From assembly GCA_040755995.1 (NCBI GenBank), contig JBFMAF010000027.1, positions 1-64,000 of the forward strand: DNA of 64,000 nucleotides, written 5' to 3'. Every line of letters begins with the position of its first letter. Within the stretch, counting starts at the first letter, position 1. Under the pieces are notes generated by a model. The model saw nothing but the letters and a program-made list of their open reading frames with translations. It did no database searches and had not been told where the DNA came from. The DNA comes from Acidobacteriota bacterium (lineage in GTDB: Bacteria > Acidobacteriota > CAIWXX01). The position numbers and the translations under genes were made by a program. Below are positions 19,172-38,395 of this stretch, piece by piece.

Positions 19172-19187
19172 TGTGTCATATTACGCA
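19172..19187. promoter_or_regulatory. Candidate enhancer-binding-protein site
   Basis: TGTG-TCATATTA-CGCA, one mismatch to the TGCG-N8-CGCA dyad, about 60 nt upstream of a sigma54 promoter. Confidence 0.4.
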
Positions 19188-19249
19188 CCGACAGCGTCAG
19201 CCGACCTCCCTGACGCTAGGCGCGCGCCTGGCACGGGAGGACTTATGGT

Positions 19250-19265
19250 TGGCACGCAATTTGCA
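19250..19265 (+). promoter_or_regulatory. sigma54 (-24/-12) promoter
   Basis: TGGCACGCAATTTGCA, a perfect TGGCACG-N4-TTGC match, 50 nt before the decaheme gene. Confidence 0.85.
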
Positions 19266-19314
19266 AAACATTGCGGAGTAGCTTATTTCGTTTCGCTGGA
19301 CGGAGAAGGGACAA

Positions 19315-20427
19315 ATGGACATGGCAGATTACAGACTAATCACCGGCATCACGATGGCGTCCGTCTCCCTCGCGACCGTGCTCATCGCGGGCACCACTGA
19401 GCGCACCCCGGCAGGCACCACTGAGCGCACCCCGGCATCTAGGCCCGGCTCCGGCAACCTCGGACCGTTGCCCCAAGCAGAGGCGGCTTTCACATCGCAC
19501 GCTCCCTATGAGACCGGCGACTGCGGACTCTGCCACAAGCAATCGGATCCGCGTGCCTCGGGAGCTCTCGCCCGCCCCGTGGCCGAGCTGTGCCTGGGCT
19601 GTCACGAAGACTTCAAACAGGTGTTGAGCAGGAGGTTCGCGCATGCGGCGGCCGAAGACAGCTGCGTGAACTGTCACAACCCGCACAATTCGAAACAGCC
19701 GAAGCTGCTCCTCGCAGACCCGAAGGGCCTCTGCCTAGGCTGCCACGACTCCATCAAAGATCTGGCGTTGCGCTCGAAGGTCGTGCACGGTGCGCTGTCT
19801 ACCGGCGGCAAGTGCGCGGGCTGCCACGACCCCCACGGGTCCGAGATTGAGCATCTCTTGCTCCGGCTCCCCTTCGACCTCTGCGTGAAGTGTCATGCCC
19901 AGGACGGTCTTCTCGACACGCAGGGGAAGGCTCTTACGAACATGAGGAAGCTGCTGGACGAGAACTCCGTCTGGCACGGACCGGTGAGCAACAAAGATTG
20001 TACTTCATGCCATGACCCGCACGCCGGATCGCTGTTCCGGATGCTCGCCGCGGAGTATCCGCCGGAGTTCTACGCGCCGTACGATCCGAAGCTCTATGCG
20101 CTCTGTTTCACCTGTCACAACGAGCAGATGCTGGCGACCCCGGAAACCACCACACTCACCCAGTTTCGCGACGGCGCGCAGAATCTGCACTACCTGCACG
20201 TGCGCCGATCGGAGCGAGGGAGGACGTGCCGGGCCTGCCATGAGGTGCACGCGTCGAAGCAGCCTCATCAGATTCGCGACGGCGTGCCCTACGGATCAGG
20301 TGGATGGATTCTGAAGACCAACTACCGAGAGACACCGGAGGGCGGGGTCTGCGAGAAGACGTGTCACGCGACCAAGACCTACGTCAACACGGCGCCTTCA
20401 CCTGGGACTCGGCCATCGACGGAGTGA
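19315..20427 (+). CDS. Decaheme c-type cytochrome (doubled-CxxCH, DmsE/MtrA-like relay type)
   Basis: 9 CxxCH plus C-terminal CEKTCH (Cx3CH); CxxCHxPH repeats; N-terminal hydrophobic segment. Confidence 0.9.
   Translation: MDMADYRLITGITMASVSLATVLIAGTTERTPAGTTERTPASRPGSGNLGPLPQAEAAFTSHAPYETGDCGLCHKQSDPRASGALARPVAELCLGCHEDFKQVLSRRFAHAAAEDSCVNCHNPHNSKQPKLLLADPKGLCLGCHDSIKDLALRSKVVHGALSTGGKCAGCHDPHGSEIEHLLLRLPFDLCVKCHAQDGLLDTQGKALTNMRKLLDENSVWHGPVSNKDCTSCHDPHAGSLFRMLAAEYPPEFYAPYDPKLYALCFTCHNEQMLATPETTTLTQFRDGAQNLHYLHVRRSERGRTCRACHEVHASKQPHQIRDGVPYGSGGWILKTNYRETPEGGVCEKTCHATKTYVNTAPSPGTRPSTE
19390..19437 (+). repeat. Perfect 24-bp tandem duplication (GTTERTPA x2)
   Basis: GGCACCACTGAGCGCACCCCGGCA occurs twice, at 19390-19413 and 19414-19437. 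Confidence 0.95.
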
Positions 20428-20429
20428 TC

Positions 20430-21290
20430 ATGGAGCCAAGACTGGCTCGAATCGGCGCCCGGGCTGGGATCCTGCTCTGGTCGTGTTCGACTATCCACCC
20501 AACGTGTGCTTCCTCGTTTGCGAACATGCCGGTAGGAACGATCATCGAGGATGTGGAGCTTCGCGGCCCGGACGGGGCAGAGCGCCACTTGCTGGAGGCG
20601 GACAGCATCAATGTGTTCATGTTCGTGAACCCGGAGCAAGAGCATTCCCTGTCAGCGGTGCGCGCGATGGCAGAGCTTCGAGAAGAATTCGCAGGGAAGC
20701 CGGTACATTGGGGCGTAATCGTCACTGACAGAGCGCCGCAGGCTGCGGTGGAATCGATGACAGGGCGCGGCAACGCGTCAATACCCGTGCTCTTGGACAA
20801 AGGGGATGTGCTCTACGGACGGTTTGGCGTCGCGCTCTTCCCGGTCGCCGGCATTACCGACCGGTCTTCCAGACTCGCCTTCTACGAGCCTTTTTCGAAA
20901 GTGCACTACCCGACCGTGATCCGGGCAAGGATCAGGTACCTGCTTGGCGAGATCGATCAAGCGGAGATGATGCGGGCTGTTGCGCCTCCAGCCGAGGCGG
21001 AGGTCGCTGATGCTGACGTGGCCCGGCGATTCCTCAAGCTTGCCGAGATGCTGTACCAGTCTGGAAAGTACGAGAAGGCAGCCGAGTCAGTCCGTCACAG
21101 CATCGAGAAAGACGAGACCCTTGTCGCGTCGCATGTGCTACTCGGTAGGGTCCTCGCCGCCCTGGGCAGATGCGAGGAGGCGATCGAGGCATTTGAGCGG
21201 GCGAAGCAGCTGGACCCGGGGGATCCCGGAGCAACCGGCCCACGCCCGGATTGTACCCAGTCGACGGGCGGCGGTCGTCTCACGCCCTGA
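20430..21290 (+). CDS. Thioredoxin-like fold (no CxxC) + TPR protein
   Basis: ATG 2 nt after the cytochrome stop; IPVLLDKGDVLYGRFGVALFP resembles AhpC/TSA; C-terminal TPRs (SHVLLGRVLAALGRCEEAIEAFERA). Confidence 0.7.
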   Translation: MEPRLARIGARAGILLWSCSTIHPTCASSFANMPVGTIIEDVELRGPDGAERHLLEADSINVFMFVNPEQEHSLSAVRAMAELREEFAGKPVHWGVIVTDRAPQAAVESMTGRGNASIPVLLDKGDVLYGRFGVALFPVAGITDRSSRLAFYEPFSKVHYPTVIRARIRYLLGEIDQAEMMRAVAPPAEAEVADADVARRFLKLAEMLYQSGKYEKAAESVRHSIEKDETLVASHVLLGRVLAALGRCEEAIEAFERAKQLDPGDPGATGPRPDCTQSTGGGRLTP

Positions 21291-21478
21291 CGCCGAACTG
21301 AAGAACGCGCGGCGATATCTGCGCGGCGAGGAGCTGTTCCCGCACCCCGGCGCAGAGTACTATGATTAACGCGGCGCTCAGGCGCTCACGGGAGCTGGAT
21401 GGTCACGAGGCCAACTGCGACCTTGCAAGGAGCGTGACAGGGCAGCGGCACAACTGGCCGCAGGTCCGCCCGCGCAAG

Positions 21479-22237
21479 TCACTTGAGGTGACAGGTGTTG
21501 CACAATGCGCTGTTCTGATTCGGCTTCCTGAGGAAGGGGAAAACGTCGGGATCGTGCACATTGTGACAGGAAGGGCATTCGATCTTCCCTCCGTACAGCT
21601 TCACATCGTATGACGAGCTGCCGCCCCACCCCGTCATGGGGTTATCGGGCGCAGTGAAATCGGGATCCAATGCAGGAGTCGGGTAGATCATTCCTATGGG
21701 ATGGTCATTCCGGAGGTCAGTTCCCAAGTATGACATCAGTGCGTCGTGTCCCCAGGTTCCGTCGTGGCACATACTGCAGGTCGCGCCAGAAGCGGGATCA
21801 GGGTCCATCCTCCAGTGGGCAGGCGCTGCCGGAATGCCGTACCACGGACCACCCAGGTTGGCGCCGCTGCCGGGGGCGTTCAGTACCTCATCGACAGCGA
21901 TCGTTCCATCGTGGCACGACAGGCATGCGAGAGAGTATCCACCGGGCTGACCGGGGGTTGAATCCATAGTCGGGCTCGAATACAAGGTATACGACTGGCT
22001 GGGCGTCCTATGATTCCACAGCGGCGCATCGATCAGGGTAGTCGCGCCGTGCGGCGTATGGCAGTACACGCAGACCTCCCCGTAGTTGTTCATCGTGTTG
22101 GGATGGATGAGGTTGGCCGGTATGACATGCGTCAGGTCATGCTTGGTACCGACTACTGTTCCGGAGAAAATCGGCACAGCGGCCACAGCCGCAACCGCCG
22201 AGACCACCAGCCACAGACGCATCCGGTTGGCTCTCAT
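21479..22237 (-). CDS. OmcE-family extracellular cytochrome, 5-heme variant (paralog A)
   Basis: Signal MRLWLVVSAVAAVAAVPIFS; GTKHDL, EVCVYCHTPH, PLWN, SLACLSCHDG, extra CSMCH, LGTDLRNDHP, IECPSCHNVH, PFLRK, SALCNTCHLK. Confidence 0.88.
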   Translation of the reverse strand: MRANRMRLWLVVSAVAAVAAVPIFSGTVVGTKHDLTHVIPANLIHPNTMNNYGEVCVYCHTPHGATTLIDAPLWNHRTPSQSYTLYSSPTMDSTPGQPGGYSLACLSCHDGTIAVDEVLNAPGSGANLGGPWYGIPAAPAHWRMDPDPASGATCSMCHDGTWGHDALMSYLGTDLRNDHPIGMIYPTPALDPDFTAPDNPMTGWGGSSSYDVKLYGGKIECPSCHNVHDPDVFPFLRKPNQNSALCNTCHLK

Positions 22238-22280
22238 CGTACACGACGCCCTGTGCATATACCACGCACATCGCGTATCA

Positions 22281-22734: not shown

Positions 22735-25005
22735 ATGACTTGCGCCGTGAACCGGTCCAGACGCCTCGCCACTGGCGGACTTCCGCTCGTCGGTCTCACC
22801 CTGATGATCGCGTGGCTTTCGTTTCCAAGAAGACCCAGCGTGTTCCCGCTGGACGATGCGTATATCCACCTATCATACGTCAAGAACCTAGCGGAAACGG
22901 GGGCACTGTGTTTCAATCCGGGTGAACCAAGCATCGGCACATCGAGTCCTCTGTGGGTAGCATTCCTGGTCCCATTCTACCTGGCCGGACTCGACATGTA
23001 CTGGACCGTGCAGCTCACAAACCTCTTCCTTCTTGGTCTACTGAGCTATCTGGCGATGGACATCACGAGGACCATCGCCGTTTCGTTCTTCCAGACTGAG
23101 GGCGAGGCCATGCCCTGGTCGTTCCTCGGCGGTCTCCTGCTTGTTCTGAACGGGAACGTCCTCTGGTTCGCTCTGAGCGGCATGGAAACGATGCTCTACC
23201 TCTGCACCTGTCTTCTCGCGATCAAGCTCTACCTCCTGCGAGGATTCGATTACATCACCGGCTTGACATGCGGTCTCGTGTTTCTGGCTCGTGAGACTGG
23301 AGTGGTACTGGGACTGGTCTTCCTAGTGGCCGACTCTTCGAGCAGGCGATTCTTGCGGCTCTTCAGAGGAGCAATGGCAATGCTGCTTGTCATATCTCCT
23401 TATCTTTGGCTGACGGTGCGGGTTACAGGCGGATGGTTTCCCTCGACGGCGAGAGGCAAGCTGGCCTCCTATGTCGACGGAGGGCTCGATTGGCAACGGA
23501 TACCCAGGACCGATCTACATGATGACCTCGCAATCCGAAACCTGATCGAGAAGCGGGTATTCGAGGAAGACCCAACGTCTCGCGATTATGTGCTCTTTTG
23601 CAGAGACGTGAAGACTGAGTCCGACCTGAGCCAGCGTCTGCGGGCCGCGGGTATCTCCGAAAGTGAGGAGTTCCTGGCTGAGTGGCGCCTCACGCATCGG
23701 AATCACATATACTGGTATTTGAAGACGGTTCTTCTCTACCAGAAGTACCAGCCGCAGAACCTGCTGCTGATGGCAGTTCTGTGTGCCTGGCTCATTCATC
23801 TCATCTACACTTCCTCGCGGCGATGGCGAGAGACAAAGAAGCTCCTCACCGGTCGACTCGTGGGTTGTTCCGTGTTGATTGCATGGGGATTTCTGCATCT
23901 CTCGCTTCACGCGGTCGGCTTTCGCACTCTGCTTCATCACACCCGATACCTTGCTGACGAGTACCTCATCCTCGCCATCGCCGGATCGCTGGGTTTCATC
24001 TGGCTTCACAGACGATACACGCGCTCCGCGGCGCTCCTCGCCGGTGTCGCCCTCTTCACGAGTGCAGGCGGACTCTTCTACTGGCGGGACGTATATGCTC
24101 ACGACATCAAGCATATGGATGACGTGTATGTTCGGATGGGAGACTGGATAGAGAGAAATACACCGGACGATGCCAGGATCGCAGCCTTCGACATCGGGGT
24201 ACTCCGCTATGTCGGGAATCGTTATACGATAGATCTGGGCGGACTAGTCGATGCAAACGTCGTTCCGTATCTTGCCAGGAGGGAGTGCGGGGAATATGTC
24301 CGCCAAAGAAGAGCCGACTACATTCTCTATTCTCGTAACCTCGAAGTTGACTACTTCACCGGCCTCTATCTGGCAGAGTACGAGGGAAGGAGACTGCTCA
24401 AGCAAGCACCAGTCGTTCATTTCGATACGTCACAATACAGTGCCCCCACTCTTACTCATTCTTTTCGATTGGATTTGACCCGGATCGCTGGGTGGCTCGA
24501 CCCAACGATCGACGGGATTCAGCGGGCTTTTTGCTATGATGGACGTCCATACCAGGTGATCAACGAAACCGTCGATAATAGACTCGAGTTCGTTGGATAC
24601 TCCGTGGACCAGCGGGCGATCGAGCTCATTCCTTACTATCCCTACGGAACAAACGTGGTCTTCTTCTTCAGAGCTCGCCAGCGCCTGAGCCACCTCTACT
24701 GGGTGCACCTGGCCCTGTTTGATTCCGAAGGCCGCGTCTTCTATCTGTTCAGTCACATACCCACCCACAACTTGCTCCCCTATGACCAGTGGCCGGTAGG
24801 TCAGCTAGTTCAGGAGCACCACATACTGTTCGCTCCGACCCCAATGCCGAGAGCGAGGTTCCACATCAGGGTGACTGTCAACAGGACCCCTTTCCTCGAT
24901 AGATCTCGCCTCGGTGAGCTTGCCTGGTACGAACTCGGAACTTACGAGAATCTCGGGAACGCACTTCATCCAATGGACCATCAAGAACTGATGTGCTTTC
25001 CCTGA
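22735..25005 (+). CDS. GT-C fold membrane glycosyltransferase
   Basis: LDDAYIH after the first TM; FNPGEPSIGTSSPLW; SGMET; LARE; multiple TMs; IAAFDIG...IDLGGLVD C-terminal domain. Confidence 0.8.
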   Translation: MTCAVNRSRRLATGGLPLVGLTLMIAWLSFPRRPSVFPLDDAYIHLSYVKNLAETGALCFNPGEPSIGTSSPLWVAFLVPFYLAGLDMYWTVQLTNLFLLGLLSYLAMDITRTIAVSFFQTEGEAMPWSFLGGLLLVLNGNVLWFALSGMETMLYLCTCLLAIKLYLLRGFDYITGLTCGLVFLARETGVVLGLVFLVADSSSRRFLRLFRGAMAMLLVISPYLWLTVRVTGGWFPSTARGKLASYVDGGLDWQRIPRTDLHDDLAIRNLIEKRVFEEDPTSRDYVLFCRDVKTESDLSQRLRAAGISESEEFLAEWRLTHRNHIYWYLKTVLLYQKYQPQNLLLMAVLCAWLIHLIYTSSRRWRETKKLLTGRLVGCSVLIAWGFLHLSLHAVGFRTLLHHTRYLADEYLILAIAGSLGFIWLHRRYTRSAALLAGVALFTSAGGLFYWRDVYAHDIKHMDDVYVRMGDWIERNTPDDARIAAFDIGVLRYVGNRYTIDLGGLVDANVVPYLARRECGEYVRQRRADYILYSRNLEVDYFTGLYLAEYEGRRLLKQAPVVHFDTSQYSAPTLTHSFRLDLTRIAGWLDPTIDGIQRAFCYDGRPYQVINETVDNRLEFVGYSVDQRAIELIPYYPYGTNVVFFFRARQRLSHLYWVHLALFDSEGRVFYLFSHIPTHNLLPYDQWPVGQLVQEHHILFAPTPMPRARFHIRVTVNRTPFLDRSRLGELAWYELGTYENLGNALHPMDHQELMCFP

Positions 25006-25015
25006 AGCGACCCCA

Positions 25016-26365
25016 ATGAAGAAACTCAGGATCGTCGCTGCCGCGCTTTGTTGGCTTGGCTCCACCGGTTCGGCTCCGTTGCACTGTGCCGCACACCCCA
25101 ATGTCGTGCTGATAATCATCGATACCTTACGCGCGGATAAGCTCGGGTGCTACGGGTCCAGGGAAGACACTTCTCCGGAACTGGACGGATTGGCAGAAAT
25201 GGGAATTCAGTTCACCAAGATCTATGCTCAGTGCAGCTGGACCCGTCCTTCAGTGGGTTCCCTGCTCACATCGCTCTACCCTCGGTCAATCGGCCTGTAT
25301 GGTGGTCATCCTGGGGAGAAGCTGCATGACTGCTACTCGACTCTACCCGAGATCCTCAAGGCCCGTGGGTACTACACCCTCGGCATTACTGCGAACCCGA
25401 CCATCAACACCATCTTCAATCTTGATCAGGGGTTCGATGAGTACATCGACAGCGATGTGGTCTGGGATTGCATGCTGGGGCTGGAAAAGGGCAAGAAGGA
25501 GTACAAACCGGATGTTGTCCCGCTCCCGAATTCAGAGCGTATCTTCAGGACAGTCCTGGATAGGGCCAGGGCCATCTCGAAGAGGCCCGTTTACCTACAG
25601 ATCAACGTCATGGAGGTTCACGAAGGTTGGCGCTTGATCAGGCCGGAGTTCAAGAACATCTTTGCGAACCGCCCATTCCACTGGTACCTTGAGGCCGTCA
25701 GACAGACATCGCTTGACGTGCACCGCTTCGTCACGGAATGGCTGTCCATCCCCGGGTTTCAGGACACCTTGTTTGTGATCACGAGCGATCATGGGCAGGG
25801 ACTGGATGACCACCCACATGTTGCGAACTCACAGGATCACGGGTATCTCTTGTATGAATCCCAGCTTTCGGTGCCCCTCATTCTCTACCATCCCTCCGGT
25901 GCGTGGGAGCGGGGGAAGAAGATTGACCGACCTGCGAGGTTGATGGATCTCATGCCCACGATCCTGGACTACCTTGATATCCCCTGCCCTGATAATATCC
26001 AGGGGATTTCCTTGCTGGAGTTGATATCGCATGGGAGCTCGTCTGTGAGCTTGCCGGAGTACTTCGTGTCTGAGACGTATTTTGACGGGAGTGAGAAGCT
26101 CGCTGTCTACTCCGGACGATGGAAGTATATTGAGAATCGAGATTCTCAAGAAGGCGTGAACAAGGTTGAATTGCAGCCGATCGGAGTCAAAGAGGACGGT
26201 GCACTGACCGACCAGATTCGCGAGAACGACGGAATCCGCCGGGCGATGCGGGCATTTCTTGAATCATGGGAGTTGTCTTTCCCCAGGGCGGAGGGTACTC
26301 CCGCCGATGGGAAGTTCAGGGAGGAGGAGATTCAACAGCTGAAGTCTTTGGGCTACCTGGACTAG
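25016..26365 (+). CDS. Exported alkaline-phosphatase-superfamily (sulfatase-like) enzyme
   Basis: PNVVLIIIDTLRAD, SWTRPS, ITSDHG, HG..LYE...VPLI, DLMPTILD, QLKSLGY. Confidence 0.88.
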   Translation: MKKLRIVAAALCWLGSTGSAPLHCAAHPNVVLIIIDTLRADKLGCYGSREDTSPELDGLAEMGIQFTKIYAQCSWTRPSVGSLLTSLYPRSIGLYGGHPGEKLHDCYSTLPEILKARGYYTLGITANPTINTIFNLDQGFDEYIDSDVVWDCMLGLEKGKKEYKPDVVPLPNSERIFRTVLDRARAISKRPVYLQINVMEVHEGWRLIRPEFKNIFANRPFHWYLEAVRQTSLDVHRFVTEWLSIPGFQDTLFVITSDHGQGLDDHPHVANSQDHGYLLYESQLSVPLILYHPSGAWERGKKIDRPARLMDLMPTILDYLDIPCPDNIQGISLLELISHGSSSVSLPEYFVSETYFDGSEKLAVYSGRWKYIENRDSQEGVNKVELQPIGVKEDGALTDQIRENDGIRRAMRAFLESWELSFPRAEGTPADGKFREEEIQQLKSLGYLD

Positions 26366-26458: not shown

Positions 26459-28219
26459 GTGGCGCACCAGCCGAGTCGCGACTGTAGGTGGGGAGTCGTC
26501 AGTCCCGTGGTGAATCGCAAACCCGTTGCCGGGAGCACGAATCGCATAACCCACGTCCAGCGCAACGTTTCCATATTGTGGGTTGTCATGCTGTCAATTG
26601 GAGCGTACTACCCTGGTCTCCGCGGTGGGTTTGTCTGGGATGATTGGACTCTGATTGTCGAAAACGATTCTGTCAGATCGTGGAGCACGCTGAGAGAGAA
26701 CCTCACCTCAGACTTCTTCTACTTCGGCCAGTCGCCTTTGCTGAGCCAGAAGCGGGGTTACTATCGCCCCCTGATAACGCTTTCCTACATGGCGGACTAC
26801 GCTCTGTGGAAGCTCGACCCACGCGGCTTTCATTTCACGAACATGGTGCTACACGCCGCGGCCTCGGCCTCGCTCCTCCTGGTGCTGATCCGACTGCTTT
26901 CTGGACAACCGTGGATCGCGGTTCTGGCTGCTGCGCTCTTCAGCGTACATCCGATCCACACCGAATCGGTCAGCTGGATCTCCGGGCGAACCGACGTCAT
27001 GGCGGGCCTGTTCTTCTTCGCTGCGCTCTACTCCTACCTCCGCGCGCACCCACCGGACCGATGCGGCGCTCAGAAAGCGCCCGGATTATGGACCGGCTGC
27101 GCCGTGCTCTCTTTCGTAATGGCAGTCCTTAGCAAGGAGACCGCGATCGTGCTGCCCGCCGTCCTCGCGACATACGAGTACTGTCTGGGCCCATTCGATC
27201 TTGAGAGGGGATGGCGAGCCTCATTGAGAAGGCTGAGCCCGTACGCTATTGTGGGCATCGCCTATCTGATCGTGCGCTTCATCGTGCTCGGTGTGAGGGC
27301 GCCAACTAACGAGTGGGTGGCGGCCCAAGGCACATGGGCGATCTCCGTGACTTCGCTCAAAGCCATCGGAATCTACGCATCAAAGCTGGCTGTTCCGTGG
27401 CCGCTGTGCGCCTACTATCAGGCGCCGATAACGCGTGACCTGCTTCAAGTCGGTGTCTTGATCCCCTTGGTCGTCCTTGTGGGCCTGGGTATCTTCTTCT
27501 GGCAGCGCGGAAGAGGGCGCGGATTGCTTCCCCTTTCGTTCCTATACTTTCTCCTGACGCTGCTTCCAGTCTCGAACATTGTTCCGATTGGCGCCCCCAA
27601 GGACATGGGCTTCCTGATCGCAGAGCGGTTTCTGTACGTTCCCTCGGCAGCGTTCTGCGTTCTCGCTGCATGGGCGCTGAGCCGGGCGGCCGGCGTTCTG
27701 CCACGAGGGCCCTGGGCGCCGCATCTGGCGGGCGCTGCTTTTGCAGTCCCTGTGCTGGCCGCCTATCTCGTGCTCACGATTGCTAGAAGTTCGGTGTGGC
27801 ACGATGAGATTACATTCTACACGGAGACGTTGCGGCACGCCCCCGATGCCGGTCTGCTCCACTATGTCCTCGGAATTGCCTACTGGGAGGCCGGCGAAAA
27901 GGTGCGTGGCAAGGCCGAGATGGAGGAGGCATTGCGGTGCAATCCGGCGGCATCGTGGGCTCACAACAACTTGGGAAACATGTTGTTCGAAGATGGGAAC
28001 GTTGCCGGGGCGGTTCAGCAATGGGGGGCCGCAGTGCGAACCGATCCGTCGAACTGCCAGGCGTGGTTCAACCTGGCCAGAGCGCTGGACCGGTGGGGAC
28101 TATCTTCACAGGCCGCCGTTGCATACCGATCTTTTCTCAAGAGCGCCCCGACCTCGCTGGGCGTCTACATCGCGATGGCAAAGTCCCGCCTGAGAGCGCT
28201 CGGCCAGGACACTCGCTGA
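26459..28219 (+). CDS. TMTC-like GT-C protein O-glycosyltransferase with C-terminal TPRs; start uncertain
   Basis: GGFVWDD, YYRPL, HPIHTESVSWISGRTD, LSKE, AERFLYVPS, VWHD, then TPRs. Confidence 0.88.
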   Translation: MAHQPSRDCRWGVVSPVVNRKPVAGSTNRITHVQRNVSILWVVMLSIGAYYPGLRGGFVWDDWTLIVENDSVRSWSTLRENLTSDFFYFGQSPLLSQKRGYYRPLITLSYMADYALWKLDPRGFHFTNMVLHAAASASLLLVLIRLLSGQPWIAVLAAALFSVHPIHTESVSWISGRTDVMAGLFFFAALYSYLRAHPPDRCGAQKAPGLWTGCAVLSFVMAVLSKETAIVLPAVLATYEYCLGPFDLERGWRASLRRLSPYAIVGIAYLIVRFIVLGVRAPTNEWVAAQGTWAISVTSLKAIGIYASKLAVPWPLCAYYQAPITRDLLQVGVLIPLVVLVGLGIFFWQRGRGRGLLPLSFLYFLLTLLPVSNIVPIGAPKDMGFLIAERFLYVPSAAFCVLAAWALSRAAGVLPRGPWAPHLAGAAFAVPVLAAYLVLTIARSSVWHDEITFYTETLRHAPDAGLLHYVLGIAYWEAGEKVRGKAEMEEALRCNPAASWAHNNLGNMLFEDGNVAGAVQQWGAAVRTDPSNCQAWFNLARALDRWGLSSQAAVAYRSFLKSAPTSLGVYIAMAKSRLRALGQDTR

Positions 28220-28394: not shown

Positions 28395-28420
28395 TAGATG
28401 AGGGTGTAGGGGAGGTATAG

Positions 28421-30974: not shown

Positions 30975-31969
30975 CGGCTCTCCTTCAGGTACTCATATAC
31001 CTGAATCCTTCTGTTGGCCGAGTCGGCGACGCAGATCCGGTCGTCTTGAATCGCGATTCCGGTTGGCAGCCAGAGATCCCCCTCTCCTGAACCAGAACCG
31101 CCGAAGAAGAGCAGGAGCCTCCCCGATTCATCGAAAATCTGTACGACGTCGTGCAGCCCCTCGACAACGTAGATGTTCCCGTCGCTATCGACGGCGATTC
31201 CCTTGGGGCGGTTGAAGTCGCCTGAACTGTCGCCCAGCTTTCCGAACGACGATATGTACCGGTTCTGCGCGTCGAAGATCTGCACGCGGAAATTCATGCT
31301 GTCGCAAACGTAGAGCCGCCCGCCCGGTCCCGTCGCGATATTGGTCGGGAAGTTGAATTCGCCCGGCCCTTTGCCGTGGGCACCGAACTGCCCTACTATC
31401 TTCCCGTCCCTGGTGACCGACACGATCTTGTTGGCCAATGTGTCTACCACGCGAAGCTGATCTCCCACCACGGCGAGACCCGTGGGTCGCCGGAAGCCGG
31501 CCTCGGCCCCTATTGTCCACAGTTCCCGGCCTTTGGGGTTGAGACATACGAGCCGCCTCCGGGCCGAATCGGTGACGTACAACCGGTCGCTTCCAGCTGC
31601 CACACCGATGAGCGAATCACCATCGATGCGCATGTTGGAGTAAGCGTTCTTCGGGAGGTCGTAGACGTGCAGGCATCGTCCGAACGTGTCGGCGACAAAG
31701 AGCCGGCCGCCCGGTCCCAGACAGACGCCGTAAGGCTGAGTCATCACGTACTGCTTCTTTTCACCTGATATCAGTCCCCACAGCTTGCTCAGAAAGGAAG
31801 GCTTGCCTCCCGCTTCGGCCGGTGTGATAGAGCGGACGAACCGAATGCGCGGGTGTTCGGGTGGTTCGGGCCAGACCGTCTCCGCGGCGACGCTTCGTGC
31901 GAGGATGAGCGCCATTAGTACGGGCAGCCGGCGGCAGCCGGCCATCCTCTTGCGGCTCATGGCGCTCAT
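30971..31969 (-). CDS. NHL-repeat six-bladed beta-propeller, exported
   Basis: VWPEPPEHPRIRF; repeated FNxPxGIAV...IYVxDxxNxRVQIF units. Confidence 0.92.
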   Translation of the reverse strand: MSAMSRKRMAGCRRLPVLMALILARSVAAETVWPEPPEHPRIRFVRSITPAEAGGKPSFLSKLWGLISGEKKQYVMTQPYGVCLGPGGRLFVADTFGRCLHVYDLPKNAYSNMRIDGDSLIGVAAGSDRLYVTDSARRRLVCLNPKGRELWTIGAEAGFRRPTGLAVVGDQLRVVDTLANKIVSVTRDGKIVGQFGAHGKGPGEFNFPTNIATGPGGRLYVCDSMNFRVQIFDAQNRYISSFGKLGDSSGDFNRPKGIAVDSDGNIYVVEGLHDVVQIFDESGRLLLFFGGSGSGEGDLWLPTGIAIQDDRICVADSANRRIQVYEYLKESR

Positions 31970-34017
31970 ATGAGGAATCCGAACCTGCGAGTAACCCGAA
32001 AGAGTATCTGATTGCCGACGAAGCCTGTGCTGGTCTGTTTCTCTGTGACGATCTGGTCCAGAGTCGAGTAGCGATGTTCGACGCCGAATGTGAAGAGTCG
32101 CAACTGGTAGTCCAGCTTGGTGTAGATCCGGAACCCCTGCTGGTCCAGATACCCTGGCAGTGCGATCGCTTCGCGCCGCGCGGAAACCGACGTCCGAAGA
32201 CCGCCGAAGAAGATCCCCGCGAATTCGAGGCCGAGGTACCGGTTGCGATCGATCCCCGCGTCCGTCCGGTTTCGGAAGGCGCCGGCGGAGACGGCCAGCG
32301 TGCAGAGCCGGCCAACGTTGACCTGAACGTCGGCGTTCAAAGCACGGGCCTCGTAGTCAGTCAGAGTGTCGCCCTGGCCGCGCGTCGTCTCCGACCGCTC
32401 CCAGCTCACCTGAAGGGTCGTCTTCCAGAACGTCTGGCTTCGCGCCGAAGCTCTGACTCGCTCGAGATCGTAGTTGCCTAGACTGAGCAGCTCATCGGTC
32501 GCTTTGCCGCGTTCGTAGCTCGCGTTCACATTCATGATCTTGAGCGCGCCTGTGGACATGTTGGCTCTTCCGTTCCACGATGTGCTCACCCCATCCCTGC
32601 CGCTGACGTCGCGGTTCCAACCTCTTCCTACATCATACCCCACAACCGCCTGGATAGAACGGAGTGGCAGGTTGTAGGTAACACCGGCTCCAACGGTGCG
32701 CATGTCCACGCTGGAGTCCCCCGTGTCGGTCTTCTGGTTGCGGCGGCCATACCCGGCGCGGGCATTGAGACCCAAACCACGGACCGGGAAGTAGGTGTTC
32801 GTTGTCGACACGAACACCGCCCCAGTATCAGCCGTTGCCGACCTTCCCAGTTCCAGGCTCGTCGCGACACTCGTCTGCAACTTCTCGGCCGTCTGATAGG
32901 ACAGGTTGGCTGTCGCGTAGTAGAGCCTGTACCCGCCTGGAGTTTCTGGCTGGAGCCCCCCGTCACCGGTCTCAGTCATATGCGGCGGGATGTCAAAGAG
33001 CGAGTAGGTATCGAGGTATCCGGCCTTGACCTGGCCCCTCGTTCTCGGATTGAGCGTTGCGAGCAGCTCATAGCTGAGGTCATTGTACCTCGTCCTGAAC
33101 GCAGTGCTGAGCTCATTGTCATAGGCCTGCCTGTGGAATCTGAATGTGCTCCGCGTCCGCTTCGTCTCTTGTGTGGCTGTAAGATCGAGATTTGTACCCC
33201 GTTGAAGGACCTTGTCGGAACCAGCTTCCTCCGTATCCGAGTCCCTGCGATAGGCCAGGTGTATCATGGGCAACTTCTCCTCGTCCAAGTGCCAGTTGAC
33301 GCCGTAGGATGACAGCCGGATCTTCACGTCGGGGTACGTGGCCCCGGGCGGGAGCGGGATTCCGCCTCGAATGGGGCTGGACGTTGGGTAGTTGCCCGTC
33401 TCGGTCCCGAACGTGCGCCGCGCGAAAATCGAAAGGGGAAAAGGCCGAGAAGGGAAGAAGTTACCGTTGAGTTTGAATCCAACATCGGATGCGCCGCTGT
33501 CATCGCCGGCAAGCGACAGGCCTGTCTTCCTGAAAATAACGCCCGCGGTGTACTGGAGGAAGCGGGGATCCCAGGCGACCGATCCGTAGTTCAAGTCGTA
33601 GCTCTGGACGAAGGATCGATTCACAGATCGGGTCCCATCAGTGTCGAAGACCGAGTGCCCGAAGCTCCAATCGGCACTGCCATTCAGGTACTGAGCATCG
33701 AGCCGGCGGGGCCAGCCCACGAGAGCGATGACGACGGCAACCAAGAGCCAGGCGTGCAACCACTCAAGAGCACGGCACAGTCGCGTGACCGCGGCCGGAG
33801 GAGGAGCGCAGACGCGAGCTACAGTCAGCCCACCGCCCGGCACACGTGAGGCATCCTCCGGCAACGAATCCGAGCGAGAACGCTTGAGGCTGAGAAGAGG
33901 TTGCCATCGGGAGCGGTGCGTCATTGGCCCCGAATTCCCACGGTTTTCACTCCCGACCTTCGACCGTGGACTCTCGACGCGAGGCTGCGCCGCGCCCGCA
34001 CCAACCGCGGCCTGCAT
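31966..34017 (-). CDS. Large outer-membrane beta-barrel (porin/secretion channel); true start probably downstream
   Basis: Signal-like WLLVAVVIALVGWPRRLDA; alternating aromatic/Gly beta-strand pattern throughout; C-terminal ILFRVTRRF. Confidence 0.75.
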   Translation of the reverse strand: MQAAVGAGAAQPRVESPRSKVGSENRGNSGPMTHRSRWQPLLSLKRSRSDSLPEDASRVPGGGLTVARVCAPPPAAVTRLCRALEWLHAWLLVAVVIALVGWPRRLDAQYLNGSADWSFGHSVFDTDGTRSVNRSFVQSYDLNYGSVAWDPRFLQYTAGVIFRKTGLSLAGDDSGASDVGFKLNGNFFPSRPFPLSIFARRTFGTETGNYPTSSPIRGGIPLPPGATYPDVKIRLSSYGVNWHLDEEKLPMIHLAYRRDSDTEEAGSDKVLQRGTNLDLTATQETKRTRSTFRFHRQAYDNELSTAFRTRYNDLSYELLATLNPRTRGQVKAGYLDTYSLFDIPPHMTETGDGGLQPETPGGYRLYYATANLSYQTAEKLQTSVATSLELGRSATADTGAVFVSTTNTYFPVRGLGLNARAGYGRRNQKTDTGDSSVDMRTVGAGVTYNLPLRSIQAVVGYDVGRGWNRDVSGRDGVSTSWNGRANMSTGALKIMNVNASYERGKATDELLSLGNYDLERVRASARSQTFWKTTLQVSWERSETTRGQGDTLTDYEARALNADVQVNVGRLCTLAVSAGAFRNRTDAGIDRNRYLGLEFAGIFFGGLRTSVSARREAIALPGYLDQQGFRIYTKLDYQLRLFTFGVEHRYSTLDQIVTEKQTSTGFVGNQILFRVTRRFGFLI

Positions 34018-34040
34018 CGAGGGACTGAGGTGCAGCCTCG

Positions 34041-35024
34041 CTAGTGACTCTTCGCGAGGGCCGGGACAGCGGGGCTCTCCTTGACATCATAGACTTCGAT
34101 GCGCGCGGCGGAGCGCAGTCGCCGAGTCCACGCGTCGTTCATCTCCGAGCAGCGCTTCGACGTGAGATCGGTCTTGAGCTTCTCCTTGACTTCGTCGAAG
34201 GTCTTCTGCTGGGCCGGGCGGATCTCGGCCAGCCGGAACAAGTGGAAGCCATAGATGCTCTCGACTACATCGCTCAGGTCCCCGGGCCTCATTTGGGCAA
34301 ACACCTTTTCGAACTCCTCCGCCATGCTCCCGCGATGAATGAACCCCATATCACCGCCCTTGTCCTTGCTGGGATCGGTCGAGTACTTCCGCGCGAGATC
34401 CTCGAAGGAGACCCCGGAACGGATCTGCTTCAGCAGATCCGCTGCTTTCGTGCGAGCCTTCTCCCAGTCAGCCCTCGGCGCTGCAGGAGCTACTGAGATC
34501 GTGATGGCGAAGAGATGCAGCTGCTCTGGGGTGACAAATCGTTGAGGATTCGACTTGTAGAACTGGGCCGTCTCTTCATCGGTCACAGCGCACTTGAGAC
34601 CCACCGCAATGTCGTAGGCCCTCTTCACCAAGAGGACCCGCTCGATGTTACGCCGGAGATCATCAAGCTTCGCCCCGGATTCCTTCATGGCTTTTTCGAA
34701 TGCCTGCTTGCTGCCGTAGTGGGCAACGAGCCGGTCGATCCCGCGACTGACCTCCTCTTTCGGCACCTTCAGGCGCTGCCTTACCGCATCCTGATACTGC
34801 AGCTCCTCGTCGATCACGTTCTGGAGCGCCTTGCTCCGGATCTCAGCGAGCTTCTCCACACTCACGTTGCGGTGAAAAGAGGCGATCGGCATCAACGCGT
34901 TCATGGCCGAAGTAAGCCTGTCCAGGGCGATGGGCGCACCGTTCACACGTGCGACCACGACGGGAGGTGTCGCCTCTCCCGAGGACGGCAGCGCCGTCAA
35001 CAACAAGAGAGCAATGAAACGCAC
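34041..35024 (-). CDS. SurA/PrsA-like chaperone with PpiC peptidyl-prolyl isomerase domain
   Basis: Probable GTG start and signal; VVARVNG; SFEDLARKYSTDPSKDKGGDMG; VVESIYGFHLF. Confidence 0.92.
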   Translation of the reverse strand: MRFIALLLLTALPSSGEATPPVVVARVNGAPIALDRLTSAMNALMPIASFHRNVSVEKLAEIRSKALQNVIDEELQYQDAVRQRLKVPKEEVSRGIDRLVAHYGSKQAFEKAMKESGAKLDDLRRNIERVLLVKRAYDIAVGLKCAVTDEETAQFYKSNPQRFVTPEQLHLFAITISVAPAAPRADWEKARTKAADLLKQIRSGVSFEDLARKYSTDPSKDKGGDMGFIHRGSMAEEFEKVFAQMRPGDLSDVVESIYGFHLFRLAEIRPAQQKTFDEVKEKLKTDLTSKRCSEMNDAWTRRLRSAARIEVYDVKESPAVPALAKSH

Positions 35025-35050
35025 AGCACTAATATGCCACAAAACAGACA

Positions 35051-35075
35051 GGGAGTGAACTGTCAGTTCACTCCC
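35051..35075 (-). terminator. Intrinsic terminator/attenuator between the omcE-like gene and the chaperone
   Basis: 11-bp stem GGGAGTGAACT / AGTTCACTCCC followed on the minus strand by TGTCTGTTTT. Confidence 0.7.
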
Positions 35076-35095
35076 CTCCTGGACCCCGATCAGAA

Positions 35096-35839
35096 CTACT
35101 TGATGTGGCAGGTAGTGCAGATCGCACTTGTGGCGTTGGATTTGCGAAGGAACGACCCCTGCGTGTTGTTGTGAGGATTGTGGCAGCTTCCGCACTCGAC
35201 CGTTGCCGATGCCGCCGCCGCCCCGTAGAGGGGCAGATCGCCGGTGCCGGACGCCACGTAAATCTTGGACCCGACCTGAGTCTCGGTGACGAACTCAGTC
35301 GGCGTGGCGAGTCGCGCCGTCTGGTAGATGATCGTTATAGGGTGGTCGTTGCGAAGATCGGTCCCCATCGCGGGGATGCCACCGGTCATCAGGTTGTTGG
35401 ACCCTGGAGCGACGTTCCCATAGGTGGCCTTCGCCGCCCCCTGTACCGTGAATGCAACGGCCGGGCCGAAGGCGGCGCCGTTGAGGTTGACAAGAACGTC
35501 AACCGCGATGCTCCCGTCGTGGCAACTCATACAGGCTCCCGAAACACTGCCGGCGATCTGCGCGGAACTCGGCGCGGCAGCGTCCATGGTCGAGCTGCTG
35601 TAGACCTGATAAGTCGATGTCACGTTGTTCCGGTTCCAGAGTGGAGCCGTCGAGTTCAGGTTGGCACCGTGCGGCGTGTGACAGAAGACGCACGTCTGCC
35701 CGTTGATGGATGCGTTGCCGTTTCTGAGTGCCGAACCGGCGCTGAGATCATGAGGCCCCGTGGCGATCGTTGCCTGTGCGAACCCCGTCGCGGCCGCCAA
35801 CAGCAGTGCAGCGGCAACCGTTAGAATCTGTCTCCTCAT
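35096..35839 (-). CDS. omcE: OmcE-like tetraheme cytochrome (candidate nanowire subunit)
   Basis: GAGGAGG RBS; signal MRRQILTVAAALLLAAATGFA; PHDLS, QTCVFCHTPH, PLWNR, YSSSTM, CMSCHDG, GTDLRNDHP, LPLY, TVECGSCHNPH, FLRK, CTTCHIK, the motif order I recall for Geobacter OmcE. Confidence 0.85.
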   Translation of the reverse strand: MRRQILTVAAALLLAAATGFAQATIATGPHDLSAGSALRNGNASINGQTCVFCHTPHGANLNSTAPLWNRNNVTSTYQVYSSSTMDAAAPSSAQIAGSVSGACMSCHDGSIAVDVLVNLNGAAFGPAVAFTVQGAAKATYGNVAPGSNNLMTGGIPAMGTDLRNDHPITIIYQTARLATPTEFVTETQVGSKIYVASGTGDLPLYGAAAASATVECGSCHNPHNNTQGSFLRKSNATSAICTTCHIK

Positions 35840-35916
35840 TATTAGTCCTCCTCTCATGGCGGGCTTACAGCACCACGAGCCACACGTGCCTGGAAGCCGC
35901 CTTCGCCCAGTATCCA

Positions 35917-35932
35917 TGCATTTTCAATGCCA
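35917..35932 (-). promoter_or_regulatory. sigma54 promoter for the omcE-like operon
   Basis: Minus strand TGGCATTGAAAATGCA (GG-N10-GC). Confidence 0.75.
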
Positions 35933-36023
35933 CGATTGGAGGCAGATCATCCTGGCGTAACAGCAATCACCTCAAGCACTTACGTATGAGTCGGACAGGG
36001 AGGAAGGGTTGGCACCGAGGATC

Positions 36024-36061
36024 TGCGTGATTTTGCGCAGCTTTCTGCGCGAATTTCCGCA
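36024..36061. promoter_or_regulatory. Two dyad enhancer-like sites TGCG-N8-CGCA
   Basis: TGCG-TGATTTTG-CGCA (36024-36039) and TGCG-CGAATTTC-CGCA (36046-36061), 22 bp apart, about 90-130 nt upstream of the sigma54 promoter. Confidence 0.6.
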
Positions 36062-36087
36062 GGGCTCGCCTGAGCCGCTATCCGAGC

Positions 36088-37170
36088 TCAGTGGCCCAAG
36101 GACTCAGCCGCCGATTCCCGAATGTACTGAAAAACCTGCACCCGGGAATTGCCCTGGTCCGCGACATAGATGCGGTCCTGATCGTCCACGAAGAGCCCGG
36201 CCGGCAGGATGAACTGTCCGGGTCCGCGCCCTGGCAAGCCTACAAAGAGGAGAATCGCCCCCTGGGAGTCGAATATCTGGAAGTTGTTGAAGGATGCGTC
36301 CGCGACGTAAATGTGGCCTTCGCTGTCCACGCCTACTCCCTTCGGCCGGTTCAGACATCCGGGAGTATCGCCCTGCTTGCCGACCTCACGGATGAAATCG
36401 CCCTCGGGACCAAACACCTGTATTCTGAAGTTGAGCGTGTCGGCAACGTAGAGCTGGCTGTGACGGTCGACGAAGATGTTGGTAGGGAAGTTGAACTTGC
36501 CTGGGTCGACACCGCGCTCACCGATGGTCCTGATGAAGCTCCCGTCAGCGCTCGAGTAGCACAGCACGATGTGCTTCTTCGAGTCGGCAACGTAGAGCCG
36601 CTTGAGCTGCCTGTCGATGGCCATTCCAGACGGGTTTTCGAGCTCGCCTTCACGCCCGATAGCGATGGCGAGACCCCCATCGGGTCCATAGCCGAACACC
36701 CGGTTTAGAGTCGCATCAGCCACGAAGACCATGCCTTCATCATCCACCGCCACTCCGATCGGCTTGGCAAGCCTCCCTTGCCCTTCCTCGCCCACGAAGT
36801 CCACGTCTCGTGCGACAGGATCGAATCGAAAGACCCGGCGCGCCGCCGTGTCCGTCACGTACACGCGTCCAGTGACGTCGGCTGCCACGCCATACGGCTT
36901 CACGAGCACTTCGATCGCGCGTGGCTGCTCAGGGCCAAGCAGCATGGACTTCCACCTGGACTGTTTCTGGCCGAAATCGCCCACGCCGCGATACGTTGTG
37001 AGGTACTTGATACGCGGGCGTTCGGGGGGCAGCGGCCATACCAGGTCTGTGGGTTTGGCCGAGGGCTGCTTGGGCTTCGCGGGACCGCAGACATCCAGCA
37101 GGCACAACCACGCAGTCACCACAACCAGAAGCCCGACAGCACGCCCAGCTCGGTCACTCATGGTGCCCAT
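36088..37170 (-). CDS. Second NHL-repeat beta-propeller, possibly a lipoprotein
   Basis: LVWPLPPERPRIKY; NHL repeats (GKFNFPTNI, LNRPKGVGVDSEGHIYVAD); hydrophobic N-terminus with Cys. Confidence 0.92.
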   Translation of the reverse strand: MGTMSDRAGRAVGLLVVVTAWLCLLDVCGPAKPKQPSAKPTDLVWPLPPERPRIKYLTTYRGVGDFGQKQSRWKSMLLGPEQPRAIEVLVKPYGVAADVTGRVYVTDTAARRVFRFDPVARDVDFVGEEGQGRLAKPIGVAVDDEGMVFVADATLNRVFGYGPDGGLAIAIGREGELENPSGMAIDRQLKRLYVADSKKHIVLCYSSADGSFIRTIGERGVDPGKFNFPTNIFVDRHSQLYVADTLNFRIQVFGPEGDFIREVGKQGDTPGCLNRPKGVGVDSEGHIYVADASFNNFQIFDSQGAILLFVGLPGRGPGQFILPAGLFVDDQDRIYVADQGNSRVQVFQYIRESAAESLGH

Positions 37171-37182
37171 CGGACATCACCC

Positions 37183-38253
37183 CTACATCTTGTGGCACTT
37201 CTGGCAAACGCCCTCCCCCGGCGCGATTGGGAACGCCAGCAGTTTGGGCGAGGCAGTTCCATGGGGCACATGGCAGCTCAGGCAGTCCAGCGCCTTTCCG
37301 TTTTCGGATGGATGGATCGGGCCCGAGACCGGATGGCCGAAAATCGGGTGCCCTGTGCCGTTCTTGTCAAGGTTGATCTGATGAACCTTCCGCAAGTAAG
37401 ACCCCGGCACAGAGACGCCGGGCATGATCTCGATCGAGACTGCGGGCAGCGACCCCGCCGCCGCCGGCGACTGGTGACAAGCAAGGCACACGGCGTTCAC
37501 ATCGCCGCGCAGGCGCGCGGCGGAGTTGGACGCATGCGGATCATGACAGGCCTGGCACCCCGGGTCTCGTGCCGCTGCATGACTGGACGCCATTTTCAGT
37601 TCCGCTGCAACATCCTCGTGGCAATTCAGGCAGAGTGCGGTCTCAGGCTCAAGCAGGTGCGCTGGGTATCGAGATGCGTGTGGGCTGTGGCAGGACACAC
37701 AGCCTTCCGACTCTATCACCGGGTGGACGACCTTCGCGCCGGCGAAACGCTTCAGCAGATCCTCGTGGCATGCAGCACAGATGTCCTGAACATTCTCCGC
37801 CACGAGCTTGACCTTCCCGTTCTCGGGGGGCGCGTGACAGGAATCGCATTGACCTCCCGCCATCGGCGCGTGCGTGTATTCGAGCAACAGCGCATCGTTT
37901 TTCGATCCGTGTGGCGCGTGACACGTTGTGCAGGAAGCCGCTGCGATCGGTTGCGAACCATGTTTCGTCGCCAACTCCTTGTCGTTGAGGTCGTGGCAGG
38001 CTCCGCACAGCTCGACGAAGGTGCCGGCAAGGTACGGTGGATTCCTTCCTTTCGTCAGATCATGGCAGACCGTACAGCCCTCTTCGGTGGCCGCATGCGG
38101 ACCGGCGGCGATCTCGGCCGCGACGGTGTCATGACAGCTCAGGCAGAGTTCCTTGGTCAGTTTTTCCCCCTCAAGGTCAGGGTGCTCCGCAGTCAGACCC
38201 CGCACTGGCATCGAACAGAGGGCGGTTGTGGCAATCAGGACAGCGAGCCGCAT
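37183..38253 (-). CDS. 12-heme c-type cytochrome (doubled-CxxCH relay type)
   Basis: 12 CxxCH; signal MRLAVLIATTALCSMPVRG; start may lie upstream (ORF extends to 38352). Confidence 0.9.
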   Translation of the reverse strand: MRLAVLIATTALCSMPVRGLTAEHPDLEGEKLTKELCLSCHDTVAAEIAAGPHAATEEGCTVCHDLTKGRNPPYLAGTFVELCGACHDLNDKELATKHGSQPIAAASCTTCHAPHGSKNDALLLEYTHAPMAGGQCDSCHAPPENGKVKLVAENVQDICAACHEDLLKRFAGAKVVHPVIESEGCVSCHSPHASRYPAHLLEPETALCLNCHEDVAAELKMASSHAAARDPGCQACHDPHASNSAARLRGDVNAVCLACHQSPAAAGSLPAVSIEIMPGVSVPGSYLRKVHQINLDKNGTGHPIFGHPVSGPIHPSENGKALDCLSCHVPHGTASPKLLAFPIAPGEGVCQKCHKM

Positions 38254-38379
38254 CCGGTTCCAGCTATCCGGCCCGGCCCCCGGTAGGCCGCGCGGCCCCA
38301 TCCTCCGCGAGCCAGTCGATGGGCACGTCATCTCAGCCACCACCGGGTCCATCCTGAGTGCGCCATCGACCCATTATAC

Positions 38380-38395
38380 TGCAAGAAGGCTGCCA
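38380..38395 (-). promoter_or_regulatory. sigma54 promoter at the head of the minus-strand cytochrome operon
   Basis: Minus strand TGGCAGCCTTCTTGCA (GG-N10-GC). Confidence 0.75.

Follow-up and report, generated by a model that had tools for sequence, protein, structure and literature searches.

What anchors a cytochrome nanowire, what terminates it, and how is it charged? These questions are stated as open (PMC13712944, PMC12307469), and they are raised by a heme-rich locus of an Acidobacteriota bacterium. The window that we analysed spans 64,000 nucleotides (contig JBFMAF010000027.1 of assembly GCA_040755995.1); the locus occupies positions 19172-38395. An earlier note had read it as an OmcE-type nanowire locus outside Geobacter, equipped with folding, export and glycosylation genes of its own, and the genome indeed groups with Acidobacteriota. 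OmcE-type clusters outside Geobacter are already published (PMC13712944; bioRxiv 10.64898/2026.05.27.727921) and the core cluster is not new. What we add are statistics on a hairpin behind the tetraheme gene, and the surplus of conserved histidines in a 12-heme OmcE fusion. In our reading, to which we assign a probability of about 0.5, the operon of this acidobacterium is related to the omcE cluster and likely produces an OmcE-type heme filament seated on a large barrel; the fusion is predicted to close one end.

Gene order and heme content

Seven minus-strand genes run from 38253 down to 29151 in exactly the order that had been proposed. A 12-heme cytochrome (37183..38253; start inferred from a signal-like N-terminus), the predicted periplasmic relay, is followed by an NHL beta-propeller (36088..37170) directly upstream of the OmcE-like tetraheme E4 (35096..35839). 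Then come a SurA-N/PpiC-type prolyl isomerase (34041..35024; start inferred, frame open to 35195), a predicted outer-membrane beta-barrel (31966..33843), and a second NHL propeller (30971..31969) directly upstream of the 12-heme fusion (29151..30974), which joins an N-terminal OmcE domain to an 8-heme module with one CX7CH and one CX3CH. The remainder of the region holds the two 5-heme OmcE-like paralogs and the decaheme cytochrome that had been described, so that four proteins carry an OmcE domain.

Counted gene by gene (10+5+5+11+4+12), there are 47 CX2-4CH motifs. The CX7CH of the fusion (C266/C274/H275), kept in 37/37 homologs, raises the total to the claimed 48. In a six-frame count the region contains 49 CxxCH, compared to a mean of 0.7 and a maximum of 3 in 30 shuffles; the remaining 44.8 kb of the window contain 4.

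The tetraheme is an OmcE homolog

A single-sequence search of the PDB with E4 returns two matches only, OmcE 7TFS (E=2.3e-36) and 9YUQ (E=2.4e-33). The E4 profile finds the same structures (E=5.4e-64 and 5.3e-48), the next match lying at 4.5e-4, and does not match OmcS at E<=1. An alignment of 62 sequences has exactly eight conserved histidine columns, each occupied in 61-62 of them, and no other histidine column reaches 20%. All eight heme histidines are present, in support of the proposed homology to OmcE: the four CxxCH motifs and the four distal histidines (free His30, 57, 166 and 223) align to both 7TFS and 9YUQ, and the tetraheme is balanced, with four conserved free histidines for four hemes. 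The AF2 monomer model is uninformative (pLDDT 37.7). Cytochrome homology, the literature warns, does not identify wire formers (PMC12977616), and there is dispute over what OmcE wires contribute to electron transfer (PMC13194489).

Immediately 3' of the E4 stop, on the same minus strand, lies a hairpin of 12 pairs with a U-rich tail (35050..35076), likely a partial terminator or mRNA stabiliser. Among loci chosen by OmcE similarity, related ones not being independent, a hairpin with z<=-2 follows the tetraheme gene in 37/55, compared to 5/35 control spacers (intergenic, after NHL). This is as expected of a major subunit, the role predicted for E4. OmcE-like tetrahemes also occur outside such clusters (loci L078 and L155).

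Which known system does the operon resemble? The omcE cluster of G. sulfurreducens (7TFS) and Desulfuromonas soudanensis (9YUQ) shares with it the OmcE-homologous tetraheme with eight conserved histidines, two beta-propeller genes, a large beta-barrel and multiheme cytochromes (PMC13712944). The order here, cytochrome-NHL-omcE-PPIase-barrel-NHL-fusion, differs, and resB/ccsB linkage is absent from this operon. In three Geobacteraceae loci of the omcE type, for which filaments are proven, the fetched stretches contain neither the PPIase nor an OmcE-domain fusion, indicating that both are dispensable there. Published omcE clusters come from five phyla, Acidobacteriota not among them (PMC13712944). 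In peat Acidobacteriota, the 'porin-scaffold-cytochrome' cluster EET1 has phylum, porin and multiheme cytochromes in common with our locus; it is read there as an Mtr-like conduit, its figure legend places OmcE-like models among cytochromes of 8-13 hemes, and the words 'nanowire', 'isomerase' and 'propeller' are absent from the main text (bioRxiv 10.64898/2026.05.27.727921).

The locus had also been called an osc-like machine, which we can retain as an analogy only; the omcE cluster is the right comparator. The osc (omcS-companion) cluster, reportedly described by Shen et al. in 2025, is said to have, next to its wire subunit, genes for a chaperone of the prolyl-isomerase type, a propeller and putative channels. 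Compared by description, it thus shares chaperone, propeller and barrel or channel genes with our operon, whose subunit is OmcE-type rather than hexaheme OmcS and which has one barrel only. By heme motif count per gene, the locus contains no hexaheme OmcS-like gene.

A 12-heme fusion with surplus histidines

Residues 20-207 of the fusion match 7TFS at 7.2e-23. Eleven of its free histidines (30, 56, 141, 179, 249, 338, 425, 472, 519, 522 and 537) are present in 37/37 homologs and two more (217 and 295) in 36/37, leaving 13 near-invariant free histidines for 12 hemes. H305 (32/37), H328 (33/37) and H589 (31/37) are also well kept, and the surplus is therefore one to four. Such counting is fragile, as the 12-heme relay too shares 13 free histidines with its closest ortholog, the extra one recurring in 1/19 wider homologs. 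The surplus histidines of the fusion could instead form part of a metal or catalytic site.

All 50 fusion N-domains fall within one clade of 55 (support 0.934), whose other five members are split or edge-cut forms. Of 49 fusions, 46 come after an NHL gene and 27 show the arrangement barrel-NHL-fusion. Its heme number varies little (12 in 34 of 43 complete fusions, 11 in eight and 10 in one); the upstream cytochrome, which occupies the slot of the 12-heme relay, carries 3-38 hemes across 21 loci. Within 121 genomes of the phylum, a tetraheme match lies within about 8 kb of 11/12 full-length fusions, and the twelfth (L030) has a weak one. Seven loci carry split versions of the fusion (4+8), divided where the subunit boundary is predicted. 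The separate 8-heme part then begins with a signal-like peptide and H...CxxCHxxH, the donor position being His in 6/7 and Met in 1/7.

Petersen et al. 2026 predict an anchor with one extra histidine and found no candidate inside omcE operons (PMC13712944). Judged by its sequence, the 12-heme fusion is a candidate end-cap or anchor of an OmcE-type wire and would fit this prediction from within the operon.

Barrel, propellers, chaperone and accompanying cytochromes

The 575-residue barrel protein is modelled by AF2 as 28 strands without a plug (pLDDT 90.8), which supports the claim of an outer-membrane barrel. Its Foldseek matches are outer-membrane barrels, with MtrB (6R2Q_B) the best. MtrB itself has 26 strands. 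Being MtrB-like in size and free of a plug, the modelled barrel may serve as the sheath of a cytochrome in addition to exporting one. The barrels of Geobacteraceae omcE clusters are longer (750-800 residues) and resemble it weakly (hhalign probability 15.8%, E=0.0016, 68 N-terminal columns).

Both propellers match PF01436 (E=2.8e-33 for the one upstream of the tetraheme, a place it also holds by synteny), and in neither does a simple pattern detect the lipobox expected of lipoprotein propellers such as those of omcE clusters. At family level, the notion of a prolyl isomerase directly behind the subunit gene is well founded: the protein matches PF00639 (E=1e-21) and, as SurA_N, PF13624 (E=3.9e-10), and in 23/24 PPIase-bearing loci, one with a weak match, the gene directly follows the tetraheme.

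The decaheme cytochrome (19315..20427, plus strand; 10 conserved free histidines for 10 hemes) shares 31-34% identity with the cytochrome that comes first in Geobacteraceae omcE clusters; taken together, the decaheme and 12-heme proteins match the two upstream cytochromes there, a 10-heme and an 8-heme gene, at 27-34% identity. Here the decaheme lies outside the seven-gene operon, next to a redoxin-like/TPR gene (20430..21290, plus strand; Redoxin E=0.017, below cut-off), and the same two genes adjoin fusion clusters in L074 and L105. The genome also encodes two CcmC/CcmF-family proteins, cytochrome b/c modules and a cytochrome b561 fusion with 19 hemes.

Five-heme paralogs and the question of glycosylation

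The paralogs E5a (21479..22237, minus strand) and E5b (28421..29095, plus strand; probably starting at a CTG that follows GGAGG) consist of an OmcE core in which a fifth CxxCH separates hemes 2 and 3 and one further histidine is conserved. The 5-heme proteins are histidine-balanced, E5a having five conserved free histidines for five hemes. A 5-heme OmcE-like family was already predicted, with the OmcE core and a fifth CxxCH at similar length (PMC13712944). In our window a full operon has two of them no more than 14 kb away. Across the loci surveyed, most 5-heme genes lie away from the operon.

Between the paralogs, on the plus strand, are two multi-TM proteins that had been named GT-C glycosyltransferases. 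They have 6-7 predicted TM segments; a Pfam glycosyltransferase match was found for neither. The first (22735..25005; start uncertain), a probable GT-C fold, has Atlas similarity of 0.97 to clusters in which 22% of members carry PMT_2, its sole support for that fold. The second (26459..28219), a possible GT-C protein, combines about seven predicted TM segments with a C-terminal TPR. A sulfatase-family gene (25016..26365, plus strand; PF00884, E=3.9e-35) lies between them; like the redoxin-like/TPR gene, it sits inside the region and had been missing from the earlier list of genes.

Are these genes dedicated to the wire? In a genome of the same family (G001) the E5a-GT-sulfatase-GT block is kept at 71-82% identity, on a different contig from the core operon, and GT-C-like neighbours are labelled in 3/104 loci, so the link to glycosylation is weak.

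A proposed model for the assembly and closure of a wire

In OmcE one heme is ligated by the next subunit (PMC13712944, PMC9473688), and in OmcS it is the penultimate heme that is ligated across subunits (PMC6584659). We infer the histidine crossing the OmcE interface from the OmcS/STC pattern rather than from an OmcE structure. On the observed homology, gene order, conserved histidines, barrel model and hairpin we build the following scheme. All cytochromes would reach the periplasm by export and receive their hemes from the Ccm system of the genome, with the PPIase and the two propellers, one per OmcE-domain protein, as putative folding or delivery factors. The tetraheme would be made in excess through the hairpin behind its gene. 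One histidine of each tetraheme, probably the H57 that follows heme 1, is proposed to ligate the penultimate heme in the adjoining subunit, allowing unlimited extension. The fusion would keep the donor histidine (H56), ligate its heme 3 in cis through H249 and end in a self-closing HxxH pair; it could then dock on a filament end and accept no further subunit. Most likely it forms the base, its fixed-length 8-heme module staying in the barrel and being supplied with electrons by the periplasmic 12-heme protein, which varies in length, and by quinol oxidases encoded elsewhere. The 5-heme paralogs may be minor or tip subunits, or form alternative wires; omcE operons are reported to encode no tip candidate (PMC13712944).

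Could the same genes form a porin-cytochrome conduit without any long filament? The barrel would then sheathe a multiheme rod as in MtrB/MtrA, and the tetraheme and 5-heme proteins would be surface terminal reductases, single or in short stacks. MtrAB (6R2Q) does share the large plug-less barrel and has the closest geometry among PDB barrels, and we regard a conduit as possible, if somewhat unlikely. Identity to MtrB is only 8-9%, the operon encodes an OmcE-type subunit, and 47 scanned barrels yield no match to the MtrB family (Porin_4 twice, OMP_b-brl twice and one spurious hit being all that was found). The multihemes score 121.7 and 81.6 bits against DmsE/MtrA TIGR03508, under the cut-off of 192.2. 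The tetraheme, moreover, retains the exact open histidine pattern of both solved OmcE filaments, and the hairpin points to unequal stoichiometry.

If a filament is built, the polarity might be reversed, with the fusion leaving first as distal tip and its eight extra hemes and spare histidines touching mineral or a partner cell. Histidine counts do not distinguish base from tip, and a reactive end would be well served by the extra conserved His 305, 328 and 589 and by the hemes bound at CX7CH and CX3CH. Yet this arrangement, which we judge unlikely, needs an acceptor-only base protein, and none is evident, given the 10/10 balance of the decaheme and the two histidines that precede the last heme pair at the end of both relays. 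The fusion is also tied to the barrel gene in the 27 barrel-NHL-fusion cases. The idea of the earlier note, an osc-like export machine for glycosylated mixed or alternative wires from four interchangeable subunits, appears quite improbable to us. It can draw on the position of the PPIase, the balanced 5-heme proteins, the block retained in G001 and the densities read as glycans on G. sulfurreducens OmcE (PMC13712944). Against it stand the rarity of GT-like neighbours, the missing Pfam matches, the distance of most 5-heme genes from the operon, and histidine counts and tree, which separate the OmcE-fold proteins into the balanced tetraheme, the 5-heme variants, also balanced, and the fusion with its histidine surplus. 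Fusion and tetraheme are not interchangeable, and equivalence of all four is unsupported.

Distribution and implications

The preferred reading, a filament closed at one end by the fusion, supplies a conserved anchor candidate inside the operon, for which a specific residue (H56) can be named and split forms exist in nature, so that a single structure or point mutant would put the anchor question to the test. More tentatively, and with considerable doubt, omcE operons may come in a second, widespread type, seen here in Acidobacteriota and in records named to >10 other groups, that encodes everything needed for a pilus-like nanowire. It would comprise a self-complementing major subunit, a dedicated propeller per OmcE-domain protein, a barrel that exports the subunits first and later sheathes the anchor, a surplus-histidine 12-heme terminator connecting the filament to the periplasm, and 5-heme 'leaky' tips. 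Were this true, histidine bookkeeping would predict subunit roles in any cytochrome filament, in parallel to the donor-strand logic of chaperone-usher pili. A match was found in 21/121 Acidobacteriota genomes, adding facultative, soil- and groundwater-type members of the phylum to the likely wire makers.

Gene content of the cytochrome region

The gene layout proposed in the earlier note was confirmed. Seven minus-strand genes encode a 12-heme relay, an NHL propeller, an OmcE-like tetraheme, a SurA/PpiC isomerase (PPIase), a barrel, a second NHL propeller and a 12-heme fusion of an N-terminal OmcE domain with an 8-heme module (29151..30974). Both 5-heme OmcE-like paralogs, E5a (21479..22237, minus strand) and E5b (28421..29095, plus strand), and the decaheme (19315..20427, plus strand) also lie where claimed. 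The 48 heme motifs reported over these genes comprise 47 CX2-4CH and one CX7CH; the latter belongs to the fusion, and all three of its residues are kept in 37/37 homologs. A six-frame count gave 49 CxxCH, vs a chance mean of 0.7 and a maximum of 3 in 30 shuffles. Pfam recovered both NHL propellers, the SurA/PpiC isomerase, a sulfatase (25016..26365, plus strand) and TPR domains, and returned no diagnostic family match for the barrel. The same scan gave none for either putative GT-C glycosyltransferase (22735..25005 and 26459..28219, plus strand). This region holds every OmcE-like gene of the 7.7-Mb genome, four in all.

At E5b, GGAGG stands five bases 5' of an in-frame CTG (window 28411-28423), and a CTG start would restore the full signal peptide; the homolog in locus L076 starts with ATG. 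Glycoside hydrolase genes (GH26, GHL10) occur on both sides of the cytochrome region (window 17789-19036, 39074-41479). Window 327-15916 encodes a pair of caspase-like CHAT/TPR proteins, one subtilase bearing Ig repeats, and an ECF sigma factor accompanied by a zinc-finger anti-sigma-like gene, as far as seen unconnected with the nanowire finding.

The tetraheme as probable filament subunit

The proposed OmcE homology stands: the 247-aa tetraheme matches the two solved OmcE filaments only. A profile of 62 sequences hits them at E=5.4e-64 and 5.3e-48, the next match being at 4.5e-4. Exactly eight His columns are conserved, with four free His for four hemes, and at least 2649 of 8000 database proteins scored match at E<=1e-10. 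The AF2 model was uninformative. Directly 3' of the tetraheme stop lies a 12-pair hairpin with a U-tail. Hairpins (z<=-2 vs dinucleotide shuffles) follow the tetraheme in 37/55 loci vs 5/35 intergenic spacers after an NHL gene, counts that include related, non-independent loci. This pattern suits a tetraheme made in excess as a subunit. We infer, with a probability of about 0.65, that its product forms a filament.

Conservation of the operon

We annotated 104 loci. Fifteen were hand-picked from the same phylum, 78 were the best among 602 confirmed matches and 11 came from Geobacteraceae; five duplicate or overlapping loci were left out of counts. The window's gene order recurs in G001, a genome of the same family (L021), and in L036, L037, L038, L040 and L046. 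The PPIase is present in 24/99 loci, directly behind the tetraheme in 23, and GT-C-like neighbours were labelled in 3/104. The E5a-GT-sulfatase-GT block is conserved in G001, but on another contig, and the decaheme with its redoxin/TPR partner adjoins fusion clusters in L074 and L105. The fusion profile matched 21 of 121 phylum genomes, each at least 90% complete.

Three Geobacteraceae omcE-type loci show a different order, resB-ccsB-10 heme-8 heme-NHL-omcE-NHL-barrel-further genes, and show neither PPIase nor fusion; in other members of this family a fusion-type cluster does occur (L151-L154). The gene names in the omcE-type loci were assigned from sequence and from PMC13712944.

The search for OmcE-like proteins gave ten matches in G001, at least six being 5-heme genes spread over several contigs, and none in G002, the third family member. 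One operon variant, proteobacterial and from Nitrospirota, has several small 3-4-heme genes inserted between barrel and second propeller (L042, L050, L052, L055, L061, L073, L085, L087, L091, L109, L112). A contig in a record named as an archaeon (L049) holds NHL-omcE-barrel-NHL-fusion complete, with a barrel of outer-membrane type; its presence there is probably a binning error. Relays beside OmcE-like genes reach 38 (L027, L029) and 42 hemes (L110).

A fusion with a surplus histidine

Could the fusion end or anchor the filament? All 50 N-terminal OmcE domains of fusions fall in one clade of 55 (support 0.934), and an NHL gene precedes the fusion in 46/49 cases. Complete fusions carry 12 (34 copies), 11 (8) or 10 hemes (1); the cytochrome upstream of the tetraheme ranges from 3 to 38. 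At least 36/37 fusion homologs retain each of 13 free His, one above the need of the hemes; three more are retained by 31-33 of 37. The same count gives five for five in the 5-heme proteins and ten for ten in the decaheme. In seven loci the gene is split 4+8 at the predicted boundary, and both a signal-like peptide and the donor motif stand at the start of the 8-heme part.

Taking the His directly behind heme 1 as the probable inter-subunit donor, we assigned the histidines of the fusion by the way ligands pair in small tetraheme cytochromes. On this scheme H56 would be a free donor, H249 would fill heme 3 in cis, and H519/H522 would close the far end. In OmcS, the available text of PMC6584659 states, a neighbouring subunit provides the ligand of the penultimate heme. 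In the accessible part of PMC13712944, Petersen et al. describe an ideal anchor with nine His for four hemes, one anchor candidate, outside the cluster, and omcE operons without a tip candidate. The fusion would be the equivalent of that anchor inside the operon. Against this, proven OmcE makers appear to have no fusion in their operon, the surplus His could serve some other site, a two-sequence comparison gave the 12-heme relay a spurious His surplus, and the fusion may sit at the tip of the filament instead of its base.

No proposal of the fusion as cap or anchor was found in the literature searched, although subscription papers and supplements may hold one. That such an operon occurs outside Geobacter is no longer remarkable. 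The accessible part of PMC13712944 reports the omcE cluster in five phyla and a 5-heme family, and contains neither "Acidobacteri" nor "isomerase"; the portion available of bioRxiv 10.64898/2026.05.27.727921 describes expressed porin-cytochrome clusters with OmcE-like models in peat Acidobacteriota. The testable addition is a division of labour among OmcE-domain proteins, foremost the surplus-histidine fusion.

The host and its other redox genes

In a FastTree phylogeny built on 1090 columns from seven ribosomal proteins in 30 genomes, the host lies within a clade of ten Acidobacteriota-labelled tips, itself counted (support 0.983), as sister to three records labelled Vicinamibacterales or uncultured Acidobacteriota (0.995). 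One more acidobacterial label, placed among Proteobacteria, was disregarded. A barrel homolog with 50% identity is labelled Acidobacteria bacterium.

The genome carries two CcmC/CcmF-family genes, a 19-heme cytochrome b561 fusion, cytochrome b/c modules, six NrfD-type genes, one heme-copper oxidase and seven secretins. It is therefore equipped for heme maturation, with plausible quinol outlets and further possible export routes.

Elsewhere in the host, a gene on contig C32 (L156:7375-11796) encodes a 1473-aa protein with 60 CxxCH in c7-like triheme repeats and a signal-like N-terminus; it stands alone, its neighbours being genes for an MFS transporter and a small barrel. On contig C43 (L157:5827-13554), an MtrA-like decaheme, a 439-aa familyless protein (possible porin) and the 19-heme cytochrome b561 fusion form a second candidate trans-envelope electron path. 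Further large multihemes (L161:5575-8544 on contig C35, L158, L159, L160) include one of 989 aa with 19 hemes, cytochrome b/c fusions carrying NrfD modules, a NapC-like protein with 14 hemes and a class III protein with 16.
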